64,000 nt of DNA from IMG/VR virus record IMGVR_UViG_3300011116_001007, one strand, 5' to 3'. Under the pieces are notes generated by a model, which was given only the letters and a program-made list of their open reading frames with translations, was not told the origin of the DNA and ran no database searches. Position 1 is the first letter of the stretch, and every line of letters begins with the position of its first letter. The translations under genes were made by a program, and so were the position numbers. Positions 7,646-36,626 of this stretch are shown one piece after another. The DNA is from a virus. Its lineage: Duplodnaviria; Caudoviricetes.

Positions 7646-7666
7646 GATGCATGTCCTTGTGTTTGT

Positions 7667-7695
7667 ATTATAGCACTGATTGAATTACTGGTCAA
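7667..7695 (-). promoter_or_regulatory. Sigma70-type early promoter
   Basis: TTGACC-17nt-TATAAT. Confidence 0.85.
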
Positions 7696-7873
7696 CTCCA
7701 AAGTGCATGTCGATCAGTCGATCAATGCTACGTCCCAGCGGGTTATTGGCTCGTGCCACAACCGTAACACATTCTTGAATGATCAGCTCGGCAAACTTTT
7801 CGTAATTGAAATTAAGGCCAAATTCATTGTGTTCCCAGCATTGTGGTTCAAGTTCTTTGATTAGTTTTCTCAT
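7685..7873 (-). CDS. MNERI-family small protein (divergent N-terminus)
   Basis: EKFAELIIQEC ... HFGVDQ. Confidence 0.85.
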   Translation of the reverse strand: MRKLIKELEPQCWEHNEFGLNFNYEKFAELIIQECVTVVARANNPLGRSIDRLIDMHFGVDQ

Positions 7874-7965
7874 GCTCTATCCACCCTGGCATCTATGTTG
7901 GAACGATGACACATGTACAGTACTCCCACAATGTATCCTACTAAAAATCCCCAGAAAAAGTTCAT
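7870..7965 (-). CDS. 31-aa membrane peptide (not in ORF track)
   Basis: MNFFWGFLVGYIVGVLYMCHRSNIDARVDRA; ATGA overlaps on both sides. Confidence 0.7.
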   Translation of the reverse strand: MNFFWGFLVGYIVGVLYMCHRSNIDARVDRA

Positions 7966-8210
7966 AGTTCAACTTTCAAACGATTAATGCCTTCATGCGG
8001 GCAGTACAGTTCACTGAGTCTCCAGCATTCCATATACTCGTCGTGTTCCTGCTGGGTCACATATCTAAAAGGAAATGAATCTAAATTTTTATCTCGCAAT
8101 CGTTGCAAAATTTTCTCAGGAGCATCCCATTCAAACACACAATCAGCAGGATGATTGGCCAATGCTGCGGTCAATCCAGCTTTGATATCTCGTAATCTAA
8201 GAAACCTCAT
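7962..8210 (-). CDS. Hypothetical protein
   Basis: ORF track; ATGA overlaps. Confidence 0.75.
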   Translation of the reverse strand: MRFLRLRDIKAGLTAALANHPADCVFEWDAPEKILQRLRDKNLDSFPFRYVTQQEHDEYMECWRLSELYCPHEGINRLKVEL

Positions 8211-8425
8211 TCTTCAACACCATATTCTCGTTTAAGATCATCTAATGCTTTGCGAACCTTTTCAGCAACTGGCCGATACTTCACAGGGCCGATAGGATGA
8301 TAGTTCCATTCTGTGCCCTTCCACACTCTATTACCATTCAATAGTCGATCAACCTCTGCTAGGATTTCAAAGCGAGGATCAGCCCACATCTTGATTTGAT
8401 TATCAGGAACGACGGGTGTGTTCAT
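8207..8425 (-). CDS. Hypothetical protein ending in the GVEE junction
   Basis: ORF track; ends EYGVEE*. Confidence 0.8.
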   Translation of the reverse strand: MNTPVVPDNQIKMWADPRFEILAEVDRLLNGNRVWKGTEWNYHPIGPVKYRPVAEKVRKALDDLKREYGVEE

Positions 8426-8520
8426 AGTCCATGCCTGGCTAGAATATTACTCAACCACATCAATCCTAAACCAAATAGAATAGTACTAATGATTAGCAAT
8501 TTGATTTCAGTTCGGTTCAT
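8422..8520 (-). CDS. 32-aa membrane peptide (not in ORF track)
   Basis: MNRTEIKLLIISTILFGLGLMWLSNILARHGL; ATGA overlaps on both sides. Confidence 0.7.
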   Translation of the reverse strand: MNRTEIKLLIISTILFGLGLMWLSNILARHGL

Positions 8521-8765
8521 TCTTCAACTCCGAAATGTTCTTTAATCTCTAGAATAGGATGTAAGTATTCTTCACCAGGTCTGCTCATTCTAACAGTGTA
8601 TGGACTAATAATATCAATACATTCCTGCACAATCAACTCGGCGAACTTTTCTAAATCTTGGTCATTGATGCTATCGGAGCGCGGACCTTCCCATCGTTTC
8701 ATTCCAAAATCACCGTTTCGCACAAGCCCAGCCTCAAGGGCAAGTTGTTTAATTCGTTCGTTCAT
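8517..8765 (-). CDS. MNERI-family small protein
   Basis: MNERIKQLA ... EKFAELIVQEC ... EHFGVEE. Confidence 0.9.
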   Translation of the reverse strand: MNERIKQLALEAGLVRNGDFGMKRWEGPRSDSINDQDLEKFAELIVQECIDIISPYTVRMSRPGEEYLHPILEIKEHFGVEE

Positions 8766-8863
8766 TCTTCAACTCCGGTTGCTGGACAGAATGGTGTATG
8801 CCCATTCTTGTTGGGATTTCTGTAACAATGCTTGCACCAGTTATAATCTTTAGGTTGGTTCAT
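8762..8863 (-). CDS. 33-aa Cys/His peptide ending GVEE (not in ORF track)
   Basis: MNQPKDYNWCKHCYRNPNKNGHTPFCPATGVEE; CxxC...H...C. Confidence 0.7.
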   Translation of the reverse strand: MNQPKDYNWCKHCYRNPNKNGHTPFCPATGVEE

Positions 8864-9072
8864 TCTTCAACTCCGATACATTGTTCCACATCCTCTAAGA
8901 TACGCTTGAGTTCGTCAATGTTCATTTCCAAAAACTCTGTCGTATAGATGGCAGCAATTTGCTCAACATTTGTTACATCCTTAGCATACCTTTTAACTCG
9001 ATACTCGGTCAGCATCTTTTCCTTGCCGGCGATTGTGTTACGCAGGTTCTCTGCTAGGGTTTGGATGTTCAT
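8860..9072 (-). CDS. Hypothetical coiled-coil protein ending GVEE
   Basis: ORF track; ends EQCIGVEE*. Confidence 0.8.
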   Translation of the reverse strand: MNIQTLAENLRNTIAGKEKMLTEYRVKRYAKDVTNVEQIAAIYTTEFLEMNIDELKRILEDVEQCIGVEE

Positions 9073-9251
9073 TCTTCAACTCCGAAATGTTCTAAGATAC
9101 CATTAGGTCCATCAAACGCAAGTGTAGCACACTCACGCACAATCAACAAGGCGAACTTTTCTTCGTCAAACCCAAACGCTAGTAACTCACCATTTACACC
9201 GTAAGTTTCAATTCGGCACTGTTCAGCAAATTTTTCAATTCGTTCGTTCAT
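9069..9251 (-). CDS. MNERI-family small protein
   Basis: MNERIEKFA ... EKFALLIVREC ... EHFGVEE. Confidence 0.9.
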   Translation of the reverse strand: MNERIEKFAEQCRIETYGVNGELLAFGFDEEKFALLIVRECATLAFDGPNGILEHFGVEE

Positions 9252-9487
9252 TCTTCAACACCAAAACGTTTTTTGATCCGATATGCGGCACTGCGGACAC
9301 CGGTACTATAGGGGCCATAATCATCCTCATCATCCAACATGCCAACACATTCTCTCACAATCAACTCAGCAAATTTTTTTGTAAATTCAGATGGTACATA
9401 CATTTTATCAACATCTCCGTCCGGATCGTTACCATTCATAACGATAGACATAGCCTGAAGATTAAGTTCTTTAATTCGTTCGTTCAT
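9248..9487 (-). CDS. MNERI-family small protein
   Basis: MNERIKEL ... KKFAELIVREC ... RFGVEE. Confidence 0.9.
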   Translation of the reverse strand: MNERIKELNLQAMSIVMNGNDPDGDVDKMYVPSEFTKKFAELIVRECVGMLDDEDDYGPYSTGVRSAAYRIKKRFGVEE

Positions 9488-9723
9488 TCTTCAACTCCAA
9501 AATGTTGTTTAATAACAGAATTACAATCCATCATTTTATCAACGTGAGGTTGACCTTTTACTAAGGCCGCGCATTCTTTCACAATCAACTCGGCGAACTT
9601 TTCTATTTGCTCTAATCCTTCTTGTTCAGTGTCGGTTAGGGCATGGATAGTACGATAGTAATGTAACAATAGTGCTGGCTCAAGTTTAGCCTGTAGAGCA
9701 AGTTCTTTAATTCGTTCGTTCAC
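9484..9723 (-). CDS. MNERI-family small protein (GTG start)
   Basis: MNERIKELA ... EKFAELIVKEC ... QHFGVEE. Confidence 0.9.
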   Translation of the reverse strand: MNERIKELALQAKLEPALLLHYYRTIHALTDTEQEGLEQIEKFAELIVKECAALVKGQPHVDKMMDCNSVIKQHFGVEE

Positions 9724-9953
9724 TTGTTATTCTCCAAATAAAACATACCAACACGAACTAACGCTTCGGCGTGTTCACGGTCTTTTGGCAACACCACTGC
9801 TTCACCATTGATAAGTTTGTTATACTCACTAGCACATTCCCGAACAATCAACTCGGCGAACTTTTCCAACTGAAGGGCATCAATGTGCTGATAGAATTCT
9901 TTAGGCTTAAAGATACCAGCCTGTTGAGCAAGTTCATCTATTCGTTCGTTCAT
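9720..9953 (-). CDS. MNERI-family small protein
   Basis: MNERIDELA ... EKFAELIVREC; different C-terminus. Confidence 0.9.
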   Translation of the reverse strand: MNERIDELAQQAGIFKPKEFYQHIDALQLEKFAELIVRECASEYNKLINGEAVVLPKDREHAEALVRVGMFYLENNK

Positions 9954-10111
9954 CGTAATTCCTCTAATGCTCGTTTAACATGCTTCTTTTTGTATTGTGG
10001 GAATGCTTTGATGATGTCCTCATCAAACAAATAGTGCGGATTGCTTCGTTGATGTTCACCGATGAATTCTTCAACCTCATCTAGTAGCTTGGCAAATTTT
10101 TCGTCTTTCAT
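9950..10111 (-). CDS. 53-aa hypothetical protein (not in ORF track)
   Basis: MKDEKFAKLLDEVEEFIGEHQRSNPHYLFDEDIIKAFPQYKKKHVKRALEELR; ATGA overlaps. Confidence 0.75.
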   Translation of the reverse strand: MKDEKFAKLLDEVEEFIGEHQRSNPHYLFDEDIIKAFPQYKKKHVKRALEELR

Positions 10112-10386
10112 TGTTCAACTTCCTCTACTGGTTGGTTAGGGATGTTTTCTGTATCGCCATCTTTAGCAAAAGTAAATCCCAAACCTAACATTATTTCAGT
10201 CTCTGATGGTGTACAGTTGCCGCGAAAAATAAAAATTCTACGGGTTAGGTTGTCGTTAGAATAATAAATCCTGTAGGACACTCGGGGCACATTTAATTTT
10301 TCTGAAAGTATAGCCAACGATATCTCATCACCCCAATCTTCGGTGATAGATTCCCGTTGTTGTTCATACATAAAATCTTTCATCAT
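10108..10386 (-). CDS. Hypothetical protein
   Basis: ORF track; starts at a GVEE junction. Confidence 0.75.
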   Translation of the reverse strand: MMKDFMYEQQRESITEDWGDEISLAILSEKLNVPRVSYRIYYSNDNLTRRIFIFRGNCTPSETEIMLGLGFTFAKDGDTENIPNQPVEEVEQ

Positions 10387-10631
10387 TCTTCAACTCCGAA
10401 ATGTTTCAGTAATTCTTCTGGCTCAGGATGCCAAGCGTTGTTGCTATCATCATAACCAGAAATATCTTCAATAAACTTAGCACATTCCCGAACAATCAAC
10501 TCGGCGAACTTTTCGTTATAGTGTTGAAACCATGCTTGGTCAAAGGTACGGCGATCTGCCACCCCTTCGGTGGTAATGTCATTGATTGGTTGAAATGCCT
10601 CAAGAGCAAGTTCTCGAATTCGTTCGTTCAT
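10383..10631 (-). CDS. MNERI-family small protein
   Basis: MNERIRELA ... EKFAELIVREC ... KHFGVEE. Confidence 0.9.
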   Translation of the reverse strand: MNERIRELALEAFQPINDITTEGVADRRTFDQAWFQHYNEKFAELIVRECAKFIEDISGYDDSNNAWHPEPEELLKHFGVEE

Positions 10632-10789
10632 TTTTTAAAACTTTCGATCCATTGTACTAGAATATCCCTAGCCTCTTTCGGGCCAAGACCAAAGTATTCT
10701 TGAAGATACGGCGCGGCACCCCACATATTGGTCACTCCAGAATCCCGTAGTGCAACAAGATACTCAAAATATTCTTTATTATCGTTCAT
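10628..10789 (-). CDS. Hypothetical phage protein (53 aa)
   Basis: Start re-placed at 10789 (GGAG upstream): MNDNKEYFEYLVALRDSGVTNMWGAAPYL... Confidence 0.8.
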   Translation of the reverse strand: MNDNKEYFEYLVALRDSGVTNMWGAAPYLQEYFGLGPKEARDILVQWIESFKK

Positions 10790-11078
10790 TCTTCTTCTCC
10801 GACAATTCTGTTTCCATTTTGTCAATTGCTGTGTCAAGCATGGCAGTTGTGATCTCGTTTGGATTCATTCCAAAATGCAGTTTGATCATGTCCACACCCT
10901 GCCCGCGACTGATCATGTCACGCAACATTGGTGCCAATGCAATACAACATTCACGAATGACCAACTCAGCGGTACGATTCTGAATCTCTTTGATTTTATT
11001 GTAGCCTAACGCTACCCAAGTCTCGGGTACCAGTTCATCCAGCACCTGACCCGTAATCTGGTTAATTCGTTGGTTCAT
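10779..11078 (-). CDS. Divergent MNERI-family protein with C-terminal extension
   Basis: MNQRINQI ... RTAELVIREC ... LHFG. Confidence 0.8.
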   Translation of the reverse strand: MNQRINQITGQVLDELVPETWVALGYNKIKEIQNRTAELVIRECCIALAPMLRDMISRGQGVDMIKLHFGMNPNEITTAMLDTAIDKMETELSEKKNER

Positions 11079-11230
11079 GCGTCCAGTCCTGACTTGACAT
11101 GTTTTGGGCGGCGACGATACTGCACTCGGCTTTGTTCTGCACGGTGACGGAATGGTGTGTCGCGTGAATACAGTTCCACAGCACGACGGCGCTGGCGAGG
11201 CAGTTCAATTCGAAAACTCACGGGTTTCAT
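11075..11230 (-). CDS. Basic 51-aa protein, ArfA-like (not in ORF track)
   Basis: ...TPFRHRAEQSRVQYRRRPKH resembles ArfA FRQRVE...YMRKGKH. Confidence 0.5.
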   Translation of the reverse strand: MKPVSFRIELPRQRRRAVELYSRDTPFRHRAEQSRVQYRRRPKHVKSGLDA

Positions 11231-11262
11231 AAAATATCCATAAAAAATCCGGTGTATGCTGT

Positions 11263-11291
11263 ATTATAGCACAAACCGGATTAGTGGTCAA
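11263..11291 (-). promoter_or_regulatory. Sigma70-type early promoter driving the 18-ORF array
   Basis: TTGACC-17nt-TATAAT; inverted repeat AATCCGGT/ACCGGATT brackets the -10. Confidence 0.85.
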
Positions 11292-11313
11292 CCTGGAATT
11301 TGAGCCGTTTTTG

Positions 11314-12099: not shown

Positions 12100-12543
12100 A
12101 TGCCTATTTATAAATCTACTCATACTTTTCCCTATGTGTATCTTTGTCAGGAAAAAGATTCACCGTATTTCTATATCGGATATCGATACGCAAATCGAGT
12201 GCCGTCATCTGAAGATTTTGGAAAACATTATTTTACATCAAACAAGTATGTTAAAGAAAACTTTGACAAGTTTGATCATACCATAGTAGCAGAGTTTTTT
12301 GACAAAAAAGATGCATACACATTTGAATCTGAACTGATCAAAGAATTGAACTCAAAATATCTGCTGAATGCCCAGCGGATAGGGCGGCTCACGGGCACAT
12401 CATACAAACCCAAGATAACAGAAGAAGTTATTTCAAAAACTTGTGCTTTGCCCGAATGCAACAAGATTTTCACCAACTGGCGGTCAAAATGCTGCTGTAT
12501 CTCGCATAGTAAAAAATACGCAGGTATGCGACGTCACCAATAA
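12100..12543 (+). CDS. Free-standing GIY-YIG (Seg-like) endonuclease
   Basis: PYVY...FYIGYR, AYTFESELI...LLN; C-terminal Cys cluster. Confidence 0.75.
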   Translation: MPIYKSTHTFPYVYLCQEKDSPYFYIGYRYANRVPSSEDFGKHYFTSNKYVKENFDKFDHTIVAEFFDKKDAYTFESELIKELNSKYLLNAQRIGRLTGTSYKPKITEEVISKTCALPECNKIFTNWRSKCCCISHSKKYAGMRRHQ

Positions 12544-25030: not shown

Positions 25031-26239
25031 CTAAAAATTAGCTGCCTTTAGTGCAATAGGAGCCTCAACTTGATCCACATCAATTTCCACAGTTTTTATG
25101 CCTTGTGTGTGATATTGACGCAGATAAAACATGTGAGGTAGCAGCACACGTTCCAGCTCAGAATGCAGGCCACGAGCGCCTGTTTTGTTTTTCATGGTGC
25201 GTTCAGCAATGAGATCCAAGCTGGCATCAGTAAACTTCAACTCCACACTGTCACAATTGAACAACCAACTGTATTGCGAAATGTAGCTGTGTTTGACCTG
25301 TGTCAATATCATCACCAGATCTGCTTTGCTGAGTTCTTCCAGCGACACCCAGCTTTGGAATCGACCCACAAACTCTGGAATCATGCCATAACGGATTAGA
25401 TCTTCTGGAGTAGTTTTGGCCAAGTGCAAAGAACTGTCACGATCCATATTGGCACCAAATCCAATGGTGGTACCTTTGGTACGATTTTTTACTATGTTGT
25501 CCAGGCCCACAAATGCGCCGCCGCCTATAAACAGGATATTCCTAGTATCAATTTCCACAGTTTCACCCGATGGGTGCTTGCGGCCACCTTGCGGAGTGAT
25601 CCTACATTTGGTACCTTCTACCAGCTTGAGCAAGGCCTGTTGTACGCCTTCTCCACTGACATCTCTAGTGATACTGGCACTTTCACTTTTGCGACTGATC
25701 TTGTCTATTTCGTCAATGAACACAATACCGCGCTGTGTTTTTTCCACGTCATTGCCGGCAGCAGCAAACAGTCTACCAATCATGCTTTCAACATCATCAC
25801 CCACATATCCGGCTTCGGTAAGGCTGGTAGCATCAGCAATCACAAATGGCACATCTAAGTAACGTGCCACAGTTCGAGCCAGCAGTGTTTTGCCCGAACC
25901 AGTTGGTCCCAACATCAAGATATTGGTTTTTTCAATTTCTACATTGACGTCTTGATTGTTGATACGCTTGTAATGATTGACCACAGCCACACTCAACACT
26001 TGTTTAGCTTGTTCTTGTCCAATCACGTATCTGTCAAGGTGCCGCTTGATCTCCATTGGGTCCAATGAATCGCCTGTGTCAGCAGGTGTGACAATCAGAT
26101 CATCTTTCAACAAGGTCTCGCACAATTCCACACATTCGTTGCAGATGGCCACGGCTTCGCCAACTATGAGTTTGGTCACAATGTCCTTGTGTTTGCCGCA
26201 AAAACTGCAAGTAGTGTTACTGGTTTCGTTATTTTTCAT
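25031..26239 (-). CDS. clpX: ATP-dependent Clp protease ATPase subunit
   Basis: CSFC/CNEC Zn domain, [21 protein letters not shown] loop, IGF loop. Confidence 0.96.
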
Positions 26240-27740
26240 TGGTTTGTTTCTTGAGTTGTTCTGCCACTTGGTCACGCTCGCTATCGCTCAGCAAATCTGG
26301 ATCGTATTCTCCGCCATCTATTTTTTCAATTAAGTAGTTGATATAAGCGTCGTCATAAGTGTAACTGTCTGTGACATTTTTGTCAACCTCCATCCAGTCC
26401 TGACCATTGAATTTGTATACAACTGTGGGCTGCACATCTATTCGAACAAACGTATCTCCTCGCTTGGCATCCGTGGGGAACACTGTGCCAAAGCTGCTGT
26501 CAGGATATTCCATCCAGGGCAATTGTTTGATAATGCCCATCCTGAATCGTATGCGTTGGTTCTTTAATGTGTCAGCTGGATGGTCAAGTTTCCAGCGTTT
26601 GATCCTGGCTTTGATCCGGGGGTCGTCTTCGTCAATTTCTTCATCGTTGGCCTGGATTCCTGACAACACAATCTCAAGTTTTTCTTTGTCTCTTAAAAAA
26701 GGACCATCGCCAACATCACAATTTCTGTTGGGGCAGAACGGTCCAATACCTGGTGCATTCAGCAGCGGTGTGCCACACTTGTAGCAAGGTTCTAATTCGG
26801 GATCACTGGGTTCGGGGCGATATACTTGAATTGGCGCAGGTTCTATACCTGGAGGAGTATCACTGCCTGCAGGTGTAAACAAGTAGGGATGATCTTTGAT
26901 ATCAAATTCTTTTTCTGCTGGCAGCTCGGGATCGGGCACAGGGTCATCTACTGTTTCGGGTATTTCTTCACTATCTTTGGCTTTCTCTCTGGCCCATTTC
27001 AAACTTTCAGACGCTGCCAGCAACAACATGATGGCCAGCGGATCAAACACGCATACCAACAAGATGATAACCCAACGCACAGCACGTTCCAACACGTTGG
27101 TGTCAGGATTGTCTCCGTAGATCAATGCTGCGATATATTTTATCGGTCCAACCTCTGCCTCCACTTTGCGTACCTCGGCGGCAATAGGCGCACGGGCATT
27201 GTTAAGTTCCGCGATAGACTTCTGCGACTGTAGTATTTCATTTTGAAGGCGACTACGTTCTTTCTGCTGGGACTTTCGCATAGCCACAGCTTTGTCGGCA
27301 CCTTTTTCATCTGTTGAGCGGCCCAGTACTGAGTCCACTCCCTCATCCATCTGTTTAAGTGCCTTACGGTTTGCTTCAATATTCTCTTTTTCGGTTTTGA
27401 TTTTTTCATCATATATTGCTATCTTGGCTTGTACATCACCTGATACCAAGTTCTGATCGCTGTGTGCTTTTGACAAAAATCCAAAGATACCCATTGATGT
27501 GATCAGCATCAACATCAGCACAGCTGGCACTAGATACAATTTCATCAACCATCTAGCACGTGACCAATATTCATGCAGCCACAAGGTCACAACAACTTTG
27601 GCCAATTCAAGGATTGATCCCATGACCATGATGGGAATCACTGCTGCTGCAAATATAGCGGTCAAGCCGGCTATGCTGTAGTAGGCAGCAATGACACTTA
27701 GGCTCAAGGCCACAAATAAGGTAATAAGACTGAGGAACAT
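26229..27740 (-). CDS. Membrane-anchored coiled-coil protein with Zn-ribbon and C-terminal domain
   Basis: Three N-terminal TM helices, long coiled coil, CYKC...CPNRNC; TAAATA five nt before ATG 27740. Confidence 0.75.
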
Positions 27741-33764: not shown

Positions 33765-33961
33765 TCTTCTTCAACTCCGAAATGTTCTAAAATCTGATTA
33801 TAAACTTCATAATTGCCGTCAGCATATTGTTGACCAATATCAGCACATTTTTGAACAATCAACAGGGCGAACTTTTCCATTTCTTCATTAATGCCCATCG
33901 ACTCAATAACGAAATCATATAGCCCAGCCTGCTCCATAAGTTCTTTAATTCGTTCGTTCAT
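33761..33961 (-). CDS. Orphan MNERI-family small protein
   Basis: MNERIKELM ... EKFALLIVQKC ... EHFGVEEE. Confidence 0.9.
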   Translation of the reverse strand: MNERIKELMEQAGLYDFVIESMGINEEMEKFALLIVQKCADIGQQYADGNYEVYNQILEHFGVEEE

Positions 33962-33964
33962 TCT

Positions 33965-34219
33965 TCAACCCCAATCCTTCTTGTCACCAAACTGTTCGTT
34001 ATCGTTGAAGCCTGCGGTGTATGCTGTGATCTCAGCAGCAGTCATGTCTTTCATTTCCACACGAGGCGTGGTTGAAGTGGCACCTTCAAAGTAGTGCGGA
34101 TTATAACCACGGCTGTAGTAGCTGTCGGCACTGCCGCGATCATAAGGACCACCATGCCGTGGGTCATAGTTAGGTTGGCTAGTGTGATTGCCGTTTACGG
34201 CGTCCATGTATGAGGCCAT
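33965..34219 (-). CDS. Hypothetical protein
   Basis: RHGGPYDRGSADSYY; 3' end carries GGTTGAAGAATG junction. Confidence 0.8.
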   Translation of the reverse strand: MASYMDAVNGNHTSQPNYDPRHGGPYDRGSADSYYSRGYNPHYFEGATSTTPRVEMKDMTAAEITAYTAGFNDNEQFGDKKDWG

Positions 34220-35717: not shown

Positions 35718-36626
35718 TTAGAAATTGTATTCTACGCCAGCGCCAAATTGTGTAACATCAGACGCAGAACCTGCTGCGTCAATGTTGCTCCAACGAGCAT
35801 GCAAGGTCAATGCCTTGCTCATGGCATAAGCAGCACCTACTGCTTTGCCAGTGGTACCGTTATTGGTTTCACCGTAGCTGGCCAACAAACTTAATTGTGG
35901 GCTGACTGCTTGATTTACGCCAATGCTTTTGCCTGTGGTGCTGACACCAACAACTTTGTCTTCACTGTACATGCCATAGATGGCAGTCTTGCTTGCGGCC
36001 ACGGTGTATTTTACACCACCGATGGTACTGGTACTGGTGGTACCATTATCATACATTGCCACGGTGGCTGCAAGAGCTCCGTTGCTGTAGTTGATGCTGC
36101 CAGCTTGAACATTAGAAACGTTAGCAGTTTCGCTGTTGCTCAGTTGATAAGTTCCTGTCAGGCCCATTACAGGTGCTGTGGTTACAAAAATAGCATTTTG
36201 CACACGTGAACCTTGTGCGGCATGGATACTGGGTGCAATGGTACCATAGGTATTTTCCATAACATCAAAGTTATCCAATGCACGAGTCACAGCGTGTTTG
36301 TCACGACCCAGGCCCACAGTGCCCAGTTTGTTGCTGAGGTTAAACAAAGTGGTACGGTCGCCCAATGTGGTAGCACCTGGGGCATCAGCACCAACGCCTG
36401 TTTCAACAATGGCAGCGGCTGTGAAGCCATTGCCTACGTCAGCGGTGGCCTTAATTCCAATGCGGCTGGTGTCATTGGTCAAACGGGTTAGTGCATCAGC
36501 AGTGCCCAATTTGTACGATTCTTCGTACACTCGAGCTTTGCCATACACACTGACTTGAGGGGCAGATTGTGCCAAAACGGCCGAAGTGGCTGCTGCCAAG
36601 GCCAATACTGTTACTAATTTCTTCAT
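35718..36626 (-). CDS. Gram-negative trimeric porin (betaproteobacterial type)
   Basis: Signal peptide, VSVYG, SRIGIKA, LGTVGLGR, alternating beta strands, C-terminal GVEYNF. Confidence 0.9.
   Translation of the reverse strand: MKKLVTVLALAAATSAVLAQSAPQVSVYGKARVYEESYKLGTADALTRLTNDTSRIGIKATADVGNGFTAAAIVETGVGADAPGATTLGDRTTLFNLSNKLGTVGLGRDKHAVTRALDNFDVMENTYGTIAPSIHAAQGSRVQNAIFVTTAPVMGLTGTYQLSNSETANVSNVQAGSINYSNGALAATVAMYDNGTTSTSTIGGVKYTVAASKTAIYGMYSEDKVVGVSTTGKSIGVNQAVSPQLSLLASYGETNNGTTGKAVGAAYAMSKALTLHARWSNIDAAGSASDVTQFGAGVEYNF

Follow-up and report, generated by a model that had tools for sequence, protein, structure and literature searches.

Reassorting modules between DNA-conserved blocks in a tandem array of small-protein genes of a freshwater jumbo phage

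Background

Anti-CRISPR (Acr) islands are clusters of unrelated small, often acidic early proteins, usually accompanied by an aca regulator. Other described systems are variable in ways that bear on the locus analyzed here. In T4-type phages, short repeated DNA motifs, the promoter-early stem-loop (PeSL) cassettes, lie between the small, non-essential early genes of hyperplastic regions, and through recombination between PeSLs related phages come to differ in the order, loss and gain of genes (Arbiol et al. 2010, PMC2839356; Comeau et al. 2014, PMC4122927). In the gp38 tail-fibre adhesins of T2/T6-type phages, glycine-rich motifs (GRMs) separate hypervariable segments (Trojet et al. 2011, PMC3157838). 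The T-even proteins Ip1-3, as they are described where the original work is cited, are small proteins that share N-terminal sequence and are encoded at a polymorphic ip locus (Repoila et al. 1994, cited in PMC12373910). The subject of this paper is an array of small-protein genes at 7685-11078 (minus strand) of a 64,000-nucleotide (nt) stretch of phage DNA, referred to throughout as the window (IMG/VR record IMGVR_UViG_3300011116_001007), which is part of the 308,552-bp contig of a novel freshwater jumbo phage. The proteins of this array are built of three conserved blocks, A, B and C, and of two variable modules, V1 and V2, that are found in many different pairings among homologs in other phages.

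Three blocks and a junction

A first-pass annotation of the window, made from its letters, had noticed eight paralogs of 60-99 amino acids (aa) within 3.4 kb that share three blocks separated by unrelated segments. All eight open reading frames (ORFs) stand where it placed them, on the minus strand (Table 1; copies are named for their first coordinate). They align in the order block A (MNERIKELAxQA), V1, block B ((E/K)KFAELIVxEC), V2, block C (IKxHFGVEE), and the V1 and V2 segments are indeed not alignable among the array copies. The blocks are real, with exceptions. Block A, AACGAACGAAT, directly follows the start codon in six copies (ATG in five, GTG in 9484-9723), with deviant versions in copies 7685 and 10779; block B is present in all eight but degenerate in 10779; block C ends in HFGVEE in four copies, in RFGVEE in 9248 and in HFGVDQ in 7685, and is absent from 9720. 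The 23-bp block-B stretch that had been reported as identical in four copies (ACAATCAACTCGGCGAACTTTTC on the plus strand) is so at 8629, 9581, 9844 and 10492, and copies 9720 and 10383 have a perfect 37-bp repeat in common (9830-9866 = 10478-10514). Across the family, Ile5, Leu8, the F-A-x-L-I-V run, the block-B Cys and the block-C His-Phe-Gly are invariant or nearly so; the count for the Cys is partly forced by the search pattern, which includes it and matched exactly once in 258 of 269 proteins.

Block C, first described as a protein block, is conserved as one, and is clearly also a Shine-Dalgarno plus ATGA stop/start coupling junction. The sequence GGAG lies within its Gly-Val codons, 7 nt ahead of the next ATG, and the stop codon TGA overlaps with that ATG. 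At no more than one mismatch, there are nine occurrences of the junction 15-mer, GGAGTTGAAGAATGA, against none in 100 shuffles. Block C also terminates the unrelated cargo genes 8207-8425, 8762-8863 and 8860-9072; in the whole data set the exact 15-mer stands at the end of 31 non-family genes, and the ATGA overlap terminates 195 of 278 distinct family genes. The GVEE terminus is carried by 53% of genes that are coupled to a downstream gene as against 3% of those that are not, HFG being retained more often. Thus, the HF residues are part of the protein core, and the G-V-E-E-stop segment is set by the signal for ribosome binding and coupling: a clear case of a ribosome-binding junction dictating the termini of proteins. 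In tandem copies, block C and the following block A make up one conserved DNA element of ~45 nt.

Some homologs (P0001, 131 aa; P0002, 150 aa; P0121-P0124) hold two family units in one ORF and read through the junction (e.g., ...HFGLEEDFGVEMNQRM...), so that the joint can also generate tandem fusions. Elsewhere in the window, a junction remnant (GGGGTTGAAGAATGA) is found at 33958-33972 (minus strand), upstream of the ATG of a ninth, dispersed family copy (Table 1); the gene at 33965-34219 reads this remnant in a different frame and has its stop codon within it. It appears that the junction DNA moves together with the gene's 5' end.

Modules reassort among homologs

The collection of homologs, in which V1/V2 mosaicism had been proposed as the thing to look for, displays it in abundance. 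The sample consists of the top ~270 matches of a profile seeded with this window. When its members are split at block B and grouped by single linkage at 60% identity (thresholds that are arbitrary), 251 homologs fall into 177 V1 classes and 131 V2 classes, which make up 228 different pairings. Thirty-one V1 classes occur with the V2 class of copy 8517, 13 V2 classes with the V1 class of copy 9069 and nine with that of copy 7685 (WEHNEFGLNFNY); for two pairs of classes, all four V1/V2 combinations are present. The V2 class of copy 10779 recurs in P0045, P0058, L024 and L025 (P and L designating homologous proteins and loci). When two genes on different contigs share one module, the other module is unrelated in ~90% of cases. 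V1 and V2, in short, reassort almost freely.

At the DNA level, homology between the window and other contigs takes the form of half-genes with blocks at either end: 8510-8650 matches L002 and L003 at 95% identity, 7768-7873 matches L005, L007 and L008 at 87-90%, and 9125-9263 matches L007 at 89%. The commonest tract runs from the junction to block B, that is, it comprises V1 only. Among 207 tracts, 62% of ends fall within block zones that account for 31% of positions, although the ends of high-scoring segment pairs run into conserved blocks by construction. Cargo genes are likewise found in other arrays in altered order; the acidic cargo gene at 10108-10386, for example, recurs at 90% identity in L057 and is also present in L064 and L012.

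The most closely mapped exchange is a chimeric gene found in L097, in which V1 has 84% identity to that of copy 10383 (38% to that of copy 8517) and V2 has 93% identity to that of copy 8517 (49% to that of copy 10383); a 22-nt block-B core is identical in all three. P0014 and P0021 likewise join the V1 of copy 10383 to a V2 of the copy-8517 class. Assembly chimeras at repeats are possible in metagenomic contigs. Counter to this doubt, L097, L002 and many other loci show the pattern independently, and the combinations are present in the proteins of many assemblies. Diversification by recombination at the blocks, which the first-pass annotation had proposed, is thus supported by the mosaicism statistics, by the half-gene tracts and by this chimera.

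The blocks are conserved as nucleotides

All three blocks are conserved as nucleotides, through the use of codons that are rare elsewhere in the same genes. In block B, the fractional use of AAG is 0.87 (0.34 in the variable regions), of TTC 0.68 (0.22), of GCC 0.79 (0.22), of GAG 0.89 (0.20), of TTG 0.89 (0.25) and of CGG 0.59 (0.07); in block A, AAC and CGA are both at 0.89 (0.33 and 0.22, respectively), and in block C, GGA is at 0.97 (0.25). Where residues are identical, codons mismatch at a frequency of 0.29 in block B, 0.35 in block A and 0.10 in block C, compared with ~0.5 expected. The DNA identity that extends to synonymous sites in this array is therefore a family-wide property and not a matter of amino acids only. 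Its simplest reading is homogenisation by repeated recombination, possibly joined by selection for recombination competence; in block C, the Shine-Dalgarno function adds to homogenisation.

It might be argued instead that the blocks are kept as nucleic acid for the control of expression, by RNA pairing of A with B, as an RNase or small-RNA site or as a rare-codon rate signal, and that recombination is a side effect. Block C has a clear RNA-level role in the Shine-Dalgarno and stop/start junction, block B favours otherwise rare codons, and the CGAACGA of block A can pair with the TTGTTCG of block B in some copies. However, the A:B duplex, at -16.3 kcal/mol, gains only slightly over -13.4 kcal/mol with shuffled B, and copies with other codons after ATTGT do not pair. 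Folding z-scores for whole genes lie between -1.3 and +1.8. With duplex and folding signals this weak and inconsistent, RNA structure does not explain the codon conservation of the blocks and is rejected as its main cause. Since expression control also leaves the reassortment of modules unexplained, we regard it as an unlikely account of the blocks.

Predicted structure

The constant scaffold with variable inserts that had been surmised from sequence is what structure prediction returns. The AlphaFold2 model of copy 9069 (60 aa; predicted local distance difference test, pLDDT, 92; predicted template-modelling score, pTM, 0.71) places a helix at residues 3-11 (block A), a β-hairpin at 13-28 (V1), a helix at 30-43 (block B) and a helix at 45-56 (V2 and block C). 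The model of copy 8517 (82 aa; pLDDT 79) has the same three helices, with V1 and V2 connections of lower confidence. In both models, then, blocks A, B and C fall on the predicted helices, and V1 takes the form of a loop or a β-hairpin. Fold searches (Foldseek against PDB and BFVD; AFDB) gave no match outside the family, the best of 48,161 PDB representatives reaching Z = 3.8. The family proteins are acidic (median isoelectric point (pI) 4.8, net charge ~-7), and no membrane or signal features were found in them.

A conserved N-terminus on diverse small acidic proteins encoded at a polymorphic locus brings to mind the virion-packaged, injected Ip proteins of T-even phages: on this view, block A would act as a leader that targets the proteins to the capsid, and their variable bodies would inhibit host restriction on entry. 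T4 Ip1-3 share an N-terminal leader only, and each blocks one GmrSD variant (PMC12373910). On the other hand, block A is predicted to be a helix packed with B and C rather than a detachable leader, Ip proteins have nothing equivalent to the two additional conserved blocks, the promoters that precede the operon are of the sigma-70 type that is typical of early genes, and evidence of a protease site was not found. Packaging and injection are accordingly improbable here.

Selection on modules and stability of the array

Comparison of shared modules yields ratios of non-synonymous to synonymous change (pN/pS) of 0.14 for V2 and 0.13 for V1, at pS of 0.43-0.52 (uncorrected p-distances); differences within modules are mainly synonymous. 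Low pN/pS at high pS implies that the modules are real, functional and mostly old segments, the products neither of drift nor of mutagenesis of the kind effected by diversity-generating retroelements (DGRs).

The array itself is stable. In a second assembly (L001), it is 99.9% identical over 8.5 kb, and contigs from other studies show no differences from its unique segments; Logan contigs break at blocks, and many of their apparent joints have sides shorter than 35 nt and come from other family members. No module is common to any two paralogs of this array, and only one of 284 within-array pairs of paralogs shares a module. L032 is the only locus with two paralogs that share a V2 module (at 94% DNA identity). 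No programmed or ongoing rearrangement is seen within this strain. The suggestion of ongoing exchange inside the array is therefore not supported; most shared modules are old. Gene order and inserts are fixed within the strain, as they would be in an array that does not recombine, but the signal of recombination is there when phages are compared. A stable array with non-redundant modules, and no reverse transcriptase or recombinase among the 40 window ORFs scanned, indicates that exchange takes place between phage lineages, over evolutionary time.

That these are ordinary divergent paralogs, whose blocks are constrained residues, whose variable parts drift without recombination and whose DNA identity reflects recent duplication, is hardly credible: the blocks do form the predicted structural core and the array is stable within the strain, but one V2 class with 31 unrelated V1 partners, two class pairs with all four combinations, half-gene tracts at 80-100% DNA identity beside unalignable halves, modules that are conserved (pN/pS 0.13) instead of drifting, rare codons in the blocks family-wide and the contradiction from the L097 chimera and the module contingency data leave it little room. 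Programmed, high-frequency diversification in the phage life cycle, by a DGR, a shufflon or cassette conversion of the pilS/vlsE type, is very improbable too, for all that constant blocks flank variable cassettes in tandem and a GIY-YIG endonuclease gene adjoins the array: no reverse transcriptase or site-specific recombinase is found among the 40 window ORFs scanned with Pfam (in agreement with the first-pass annotation), the repeats are all direct, each copy is an intact, coupled ORF, and the constancy of the array in other assemblies, the near-absence of modules shared within arrays and the mainly synonymous differences within modules all speak against it, as does the rarity of the endonuclease gene.

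The latter gene is GIY-YIG endonuclease-like (PF01541, at 24 bits barely over the cut-off) and sits on the strand opposite to the array, immediately upstream of it (12100-12543, plus strand). A relative is present at only one other locus (L032) of 82, and homing-endonuclease-driven exchange is rejected as a general mechanism on that account.

Layout of the operon

The array is part of a chain of 18 small ORFs on the minus strand, nearly all of them linked through stop/start overlaps (Table 1). Two near-consensus sigma-70 promoter-like sites bracket the chain; its interior holds no further promoter-like site and, on the coding strand, no terminator-like site. Both bracketing promoters lie within copies of one 33-nt repeat (7664-7696 and 11260-11292; 82% identical), possibly another repeated regulatory element of this phage. 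The chain opens with an ORF whose product resembles ArfA-type ribosome-rescue peptides, a resemblance that no Pfam or NCBIfam match supports. The cargo gene at 10628-10837 has no family match in Pfam or NCBIfam. The two hydrophobic mini-ORFs may encode small membrane peptides.

Table 1. Features of the array and its dispersed ninth copy (positions in the window)
Feature	Position	Strand	Remarks
Promoter-like site	11263..11291	-	Upstream of the operon; TTGACC, 17 nt, TG-extended TATAAT; 11/12 matches
First ORF of the chain, non-family	11075..11230	-	51 aa; very basic, pI 11.7
Family copy, 99 aa	10779..11078	-	MNQRI start; degenerate block B RTAELVIREC; HFGMNP and 30-aa C-terminal extension
Cargo gene, non-family, 53-69 aa (start ambiguous)	10628..10837	-	53 aa as called in L001
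Family copy, 82 aa	10383..10631	-	Blocks A, B and C; V2 class AKFxE..SGYDDSNNAWHPEPE
Cargo gene, non-family, 92 aa	10108..10386	-	Acidic; in other arrays, in different order
Cargo gene, 53 aa	9950..10111	-	L061 at 81% identity
Family copy, 77 aa	9720..9953	-	Blocks A and B; without block C
Family copy, 79 aa	9484..9723	-	GTG start; blocks A, B and C
Family copy, 79 aa	9248..9487	-	Block B in other codons (AAATTTGCTGAG); C-terminus RFGVEE
Family copy, 60 aa	9069..9251	-	Shortest copy; AlphaFold pLDDT 92
Cargo gene, 70 aa	8860..9072	-	Unrelated body; IGVEE end, exact junction 15-mer
Cargo mini-gene, 33 aa	8762..8863	-	TGVEE end, exact junction 15-mer
Family copy, 82 aa	8517..8765	-	V2 class IDIIxPYTVRMSRPGEEYLHPI; AlphaFold pLDDT 79
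Block-B core, 23 bp	8629..8651		Identical at 8629, 9581, 9844 and 10492; putative crossover site for module exchange
Mini-ORF, 32 aa	8422..8520	-	Hydrophobic; in overlap chain; called as a gene in L001
Cargo gene, 72 aa	8207..8425	-	YGVEE end, junction with 1 mismatch; also in L005, L007, L057 and L064
Cargo gene, 82 aa	7962..8210	-	In the chain of 18 ORFs
Mini-ORF, 31 aa	7870..7965	-	Hydrophobic; in overlap chain
Last family copy, 62 aa	7685..7873	-	MRKLIKELE start; HFGVDQ end; TAA stop, no coupled gene downstream
Second promoter-like site	7667..7695	-	At the array end, serves the next genes; 11/12 matches, TG-extended
Ninth, dispersed family copy, 66 aa	33761..33961	-	Found with the family hidden Markov model; HFGVEEE end

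Family size, distribution and the phage

Clustered at 50% identity, the matches of an exhaustive profile search number 8,632 clusters at E<=1e-3 and 1,350 at E<=1e-10. The family occurs in metagenomes only, mostly of freshwater. Copy number varies, as an array of this kind would lead one to look for: 65 of 84 loci hold 2-10 family copies within ~10 kb, always on one strand. The statement that no function had been described for the family stands, and so does the absence of any known single-function domain to which it could be assigned. Profile searches of Pfam, PHROGs, NCBIfam and PDB gave no family match; 50,697 phage records gave no real match by megablast or tblastn; VIA-align wide, AFDB clusters and the ESM Atlas returned nothing named, only uncharacterized proteins of uncultured phages; and a literature search found FAELIV or HFGVEE in no paper. 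Among ~186,000 prokaryotic species genomes there are 13 matches, all on freshwater contigs of metagenome-assembled genomes from mixed phyla. The family is therefore phage-borne and these matches are probably binned phage DNA; with phyla so mixed, the 13 contigs do not allow a host to be inferred.

The same phage strain is present in river, lake and viral metagenomes from eight studies. The large subunit of its ribonucleotide reductase is only ~60% identical to those of Xanthomonas phages, and the window also encodes DnaB, a primase-like protein, ligase, UvdE, ClpX and a porin-like protein. The ClpX-like AAA+ unfoldase (25031-26275, minus strand) has a C4 zinc finger. The porin gene (35718-36626, minus strand; PF13609, E 2.8e-21), a homolog of Gram-negative porins and an unusual auxiliary gene for a phage, points to a Gram-negative host.

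Proposed mechanism and function

These observations suffice for a composite account, which we hold to be on balance the probable one: that the array is an early operon, that recombination at DNA-conserved blocks reassorts its modules between phages, and that a very large combinatorial repertoire results. The 7685-11078 region would be a single early operon of 18 chained genes between two sigma-70-type promoters. Its family proteins would have a conserved core made of helix 1 (block A), helix 2 (block B) and the last helix (block C). This core would carry two exchangeable modules, V1 linking the first two helices and V2 linking helix 2 to the last one. The crossover sites of ordinary homologous recombination between co-infecting or related phages would be block B, over 22-37 nt, and the ~45-nt junction, which starts with block C, takes in GGAG and the ATGA overlap and reaches into block A. 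A crossover in block B would generate a chimeric protein with a new V1-V2 pair; a crossover in the junction would move whole genes, unrelated cargo included, and would always restore the ribosome-binding site and translational coupling. The repertoire would be built over evolutionary time and not within one infection, each phage keeping a non-redundant set. The anatomy, the mosaicism, the purifying selection on modules, the nucleotide conservation of blocks, the double role of block C and the stability within the strain are results of the present analysis; homologous recombination as the means of exchange and early expression are inferred.

Several points weigh against this account. The homolog sample, drawn with a profile seeded by the window, is biased; the ends of the homology tracts and the uncorrected pS values are subject to the limits given above. 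Conservation of the blocks as DNA could partly reflect a nucleic-acid function instead of recombination. Promoter-like matches are the sole evidence of early expression, and a search of sequencing runs found no RNA run that contains the stretch. Recombination machinery was not identified within the window of the 308-kb genome, and evidence of a named function is absent from Pfam, PHROGs, NCBIfam, PDB, AFDB and the Atlas.

What the proteins do is a matter for more tentative suggestion. By analogy with the T-even internal proteins, they might bind and inhibit variable targets of the host or of rival phages, such as defence proteins, with V1 and V2 as their specificity surfaces; early-type promoters, small size, acidity, multi-copy non-redundant arrays and very many conserved modules fit such an activity. 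It is conceivable, if doubtful, that the whole constitutes a natural combinatorial library of miniprotein binders: a scaffold of ~35 residues with two independent specificity modules, in which the blocks would be in-frame recombination linkers under second-order selection and the junction a self-coupling joint that allows any cassette to be expressed wherever it lands. If that were true, the family would represent a widespread and previously undescribed evolvability device of freshwater phages. An unannotated family of thousands of clusters would in any case be reduced to a simple design, a tiny scaffold with two swappable modules, in which blocks of coding DNA serve at once for recombination and for translation coupling. 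Should the modules determine specificity, the family could rank among the largest natural phage repertoires for counter-defence or takeover, and could provide a ready-made miniprotein scaffold.

Comparison with known systems

The array differs from a DGR in that no reverse transcriptase is found among the 40 window ORFs, the region has no long repeat pair and the variable segments differ in length. It differs from a shufflon in that the copies of its blocks are direct repeats on one strand, and no recombinase is found among the same ORFs. With Acr and other anti-defence islands it shares small, often acidic proteins of no known fold that are highly variable between related phages. In contrast to those islands, it is built on a single family, whose members have their scaffold in common and differ in the combination of modules, and no helix-turn-helix marker gene was found. 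The likeness to the Ip proteins lies in the several paralogs per phage, each of which, in the case of Ip, is specific to one host-defence variant; Ip proteins have only a cleavable packaging leader in common, whereas the array family shares three blocks and a predicted fold core, and there is no homology between the two.

The likeness to gp38 is one of architecture only: conserved core motifs delimit exchangeable hypervariable segments that are swapped between phages. Searches of Pfam, PHROGs and PDB and fold searches found no similarity to gp38 in sequence or fold. gp38 is a single-copy virion adhesin that binds receptors, whereas the array proteins, of 60-100 aa, look cytoplasmic, are multi-copy and are probably early. 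The PeSL cassettes are alike in that the repeated motif carries an expression signal as well and in that breakpoints between phages fall in repeats. However, PeSLs are intergenic and hold a strong sigma-70 promoter and a stem-loop terminator, whereas the motifs of the array are coding: its junction combines a C-terminus and an N-terminus with a Shine-Dalgarno sequence and a stop/start overlap, block B is located within the gene, and promoter-like sites are confined to the two ends of the array, with none between its genes. It follows from the intragenic placement of block B, and from the coding nature of these motifs, that exchange also yields chimeric proteins. The array thus extends the motif-based modular shuffling known from PeSLs and from the GRMs of gp38 from between genes to within genes, with the reading frame kept.

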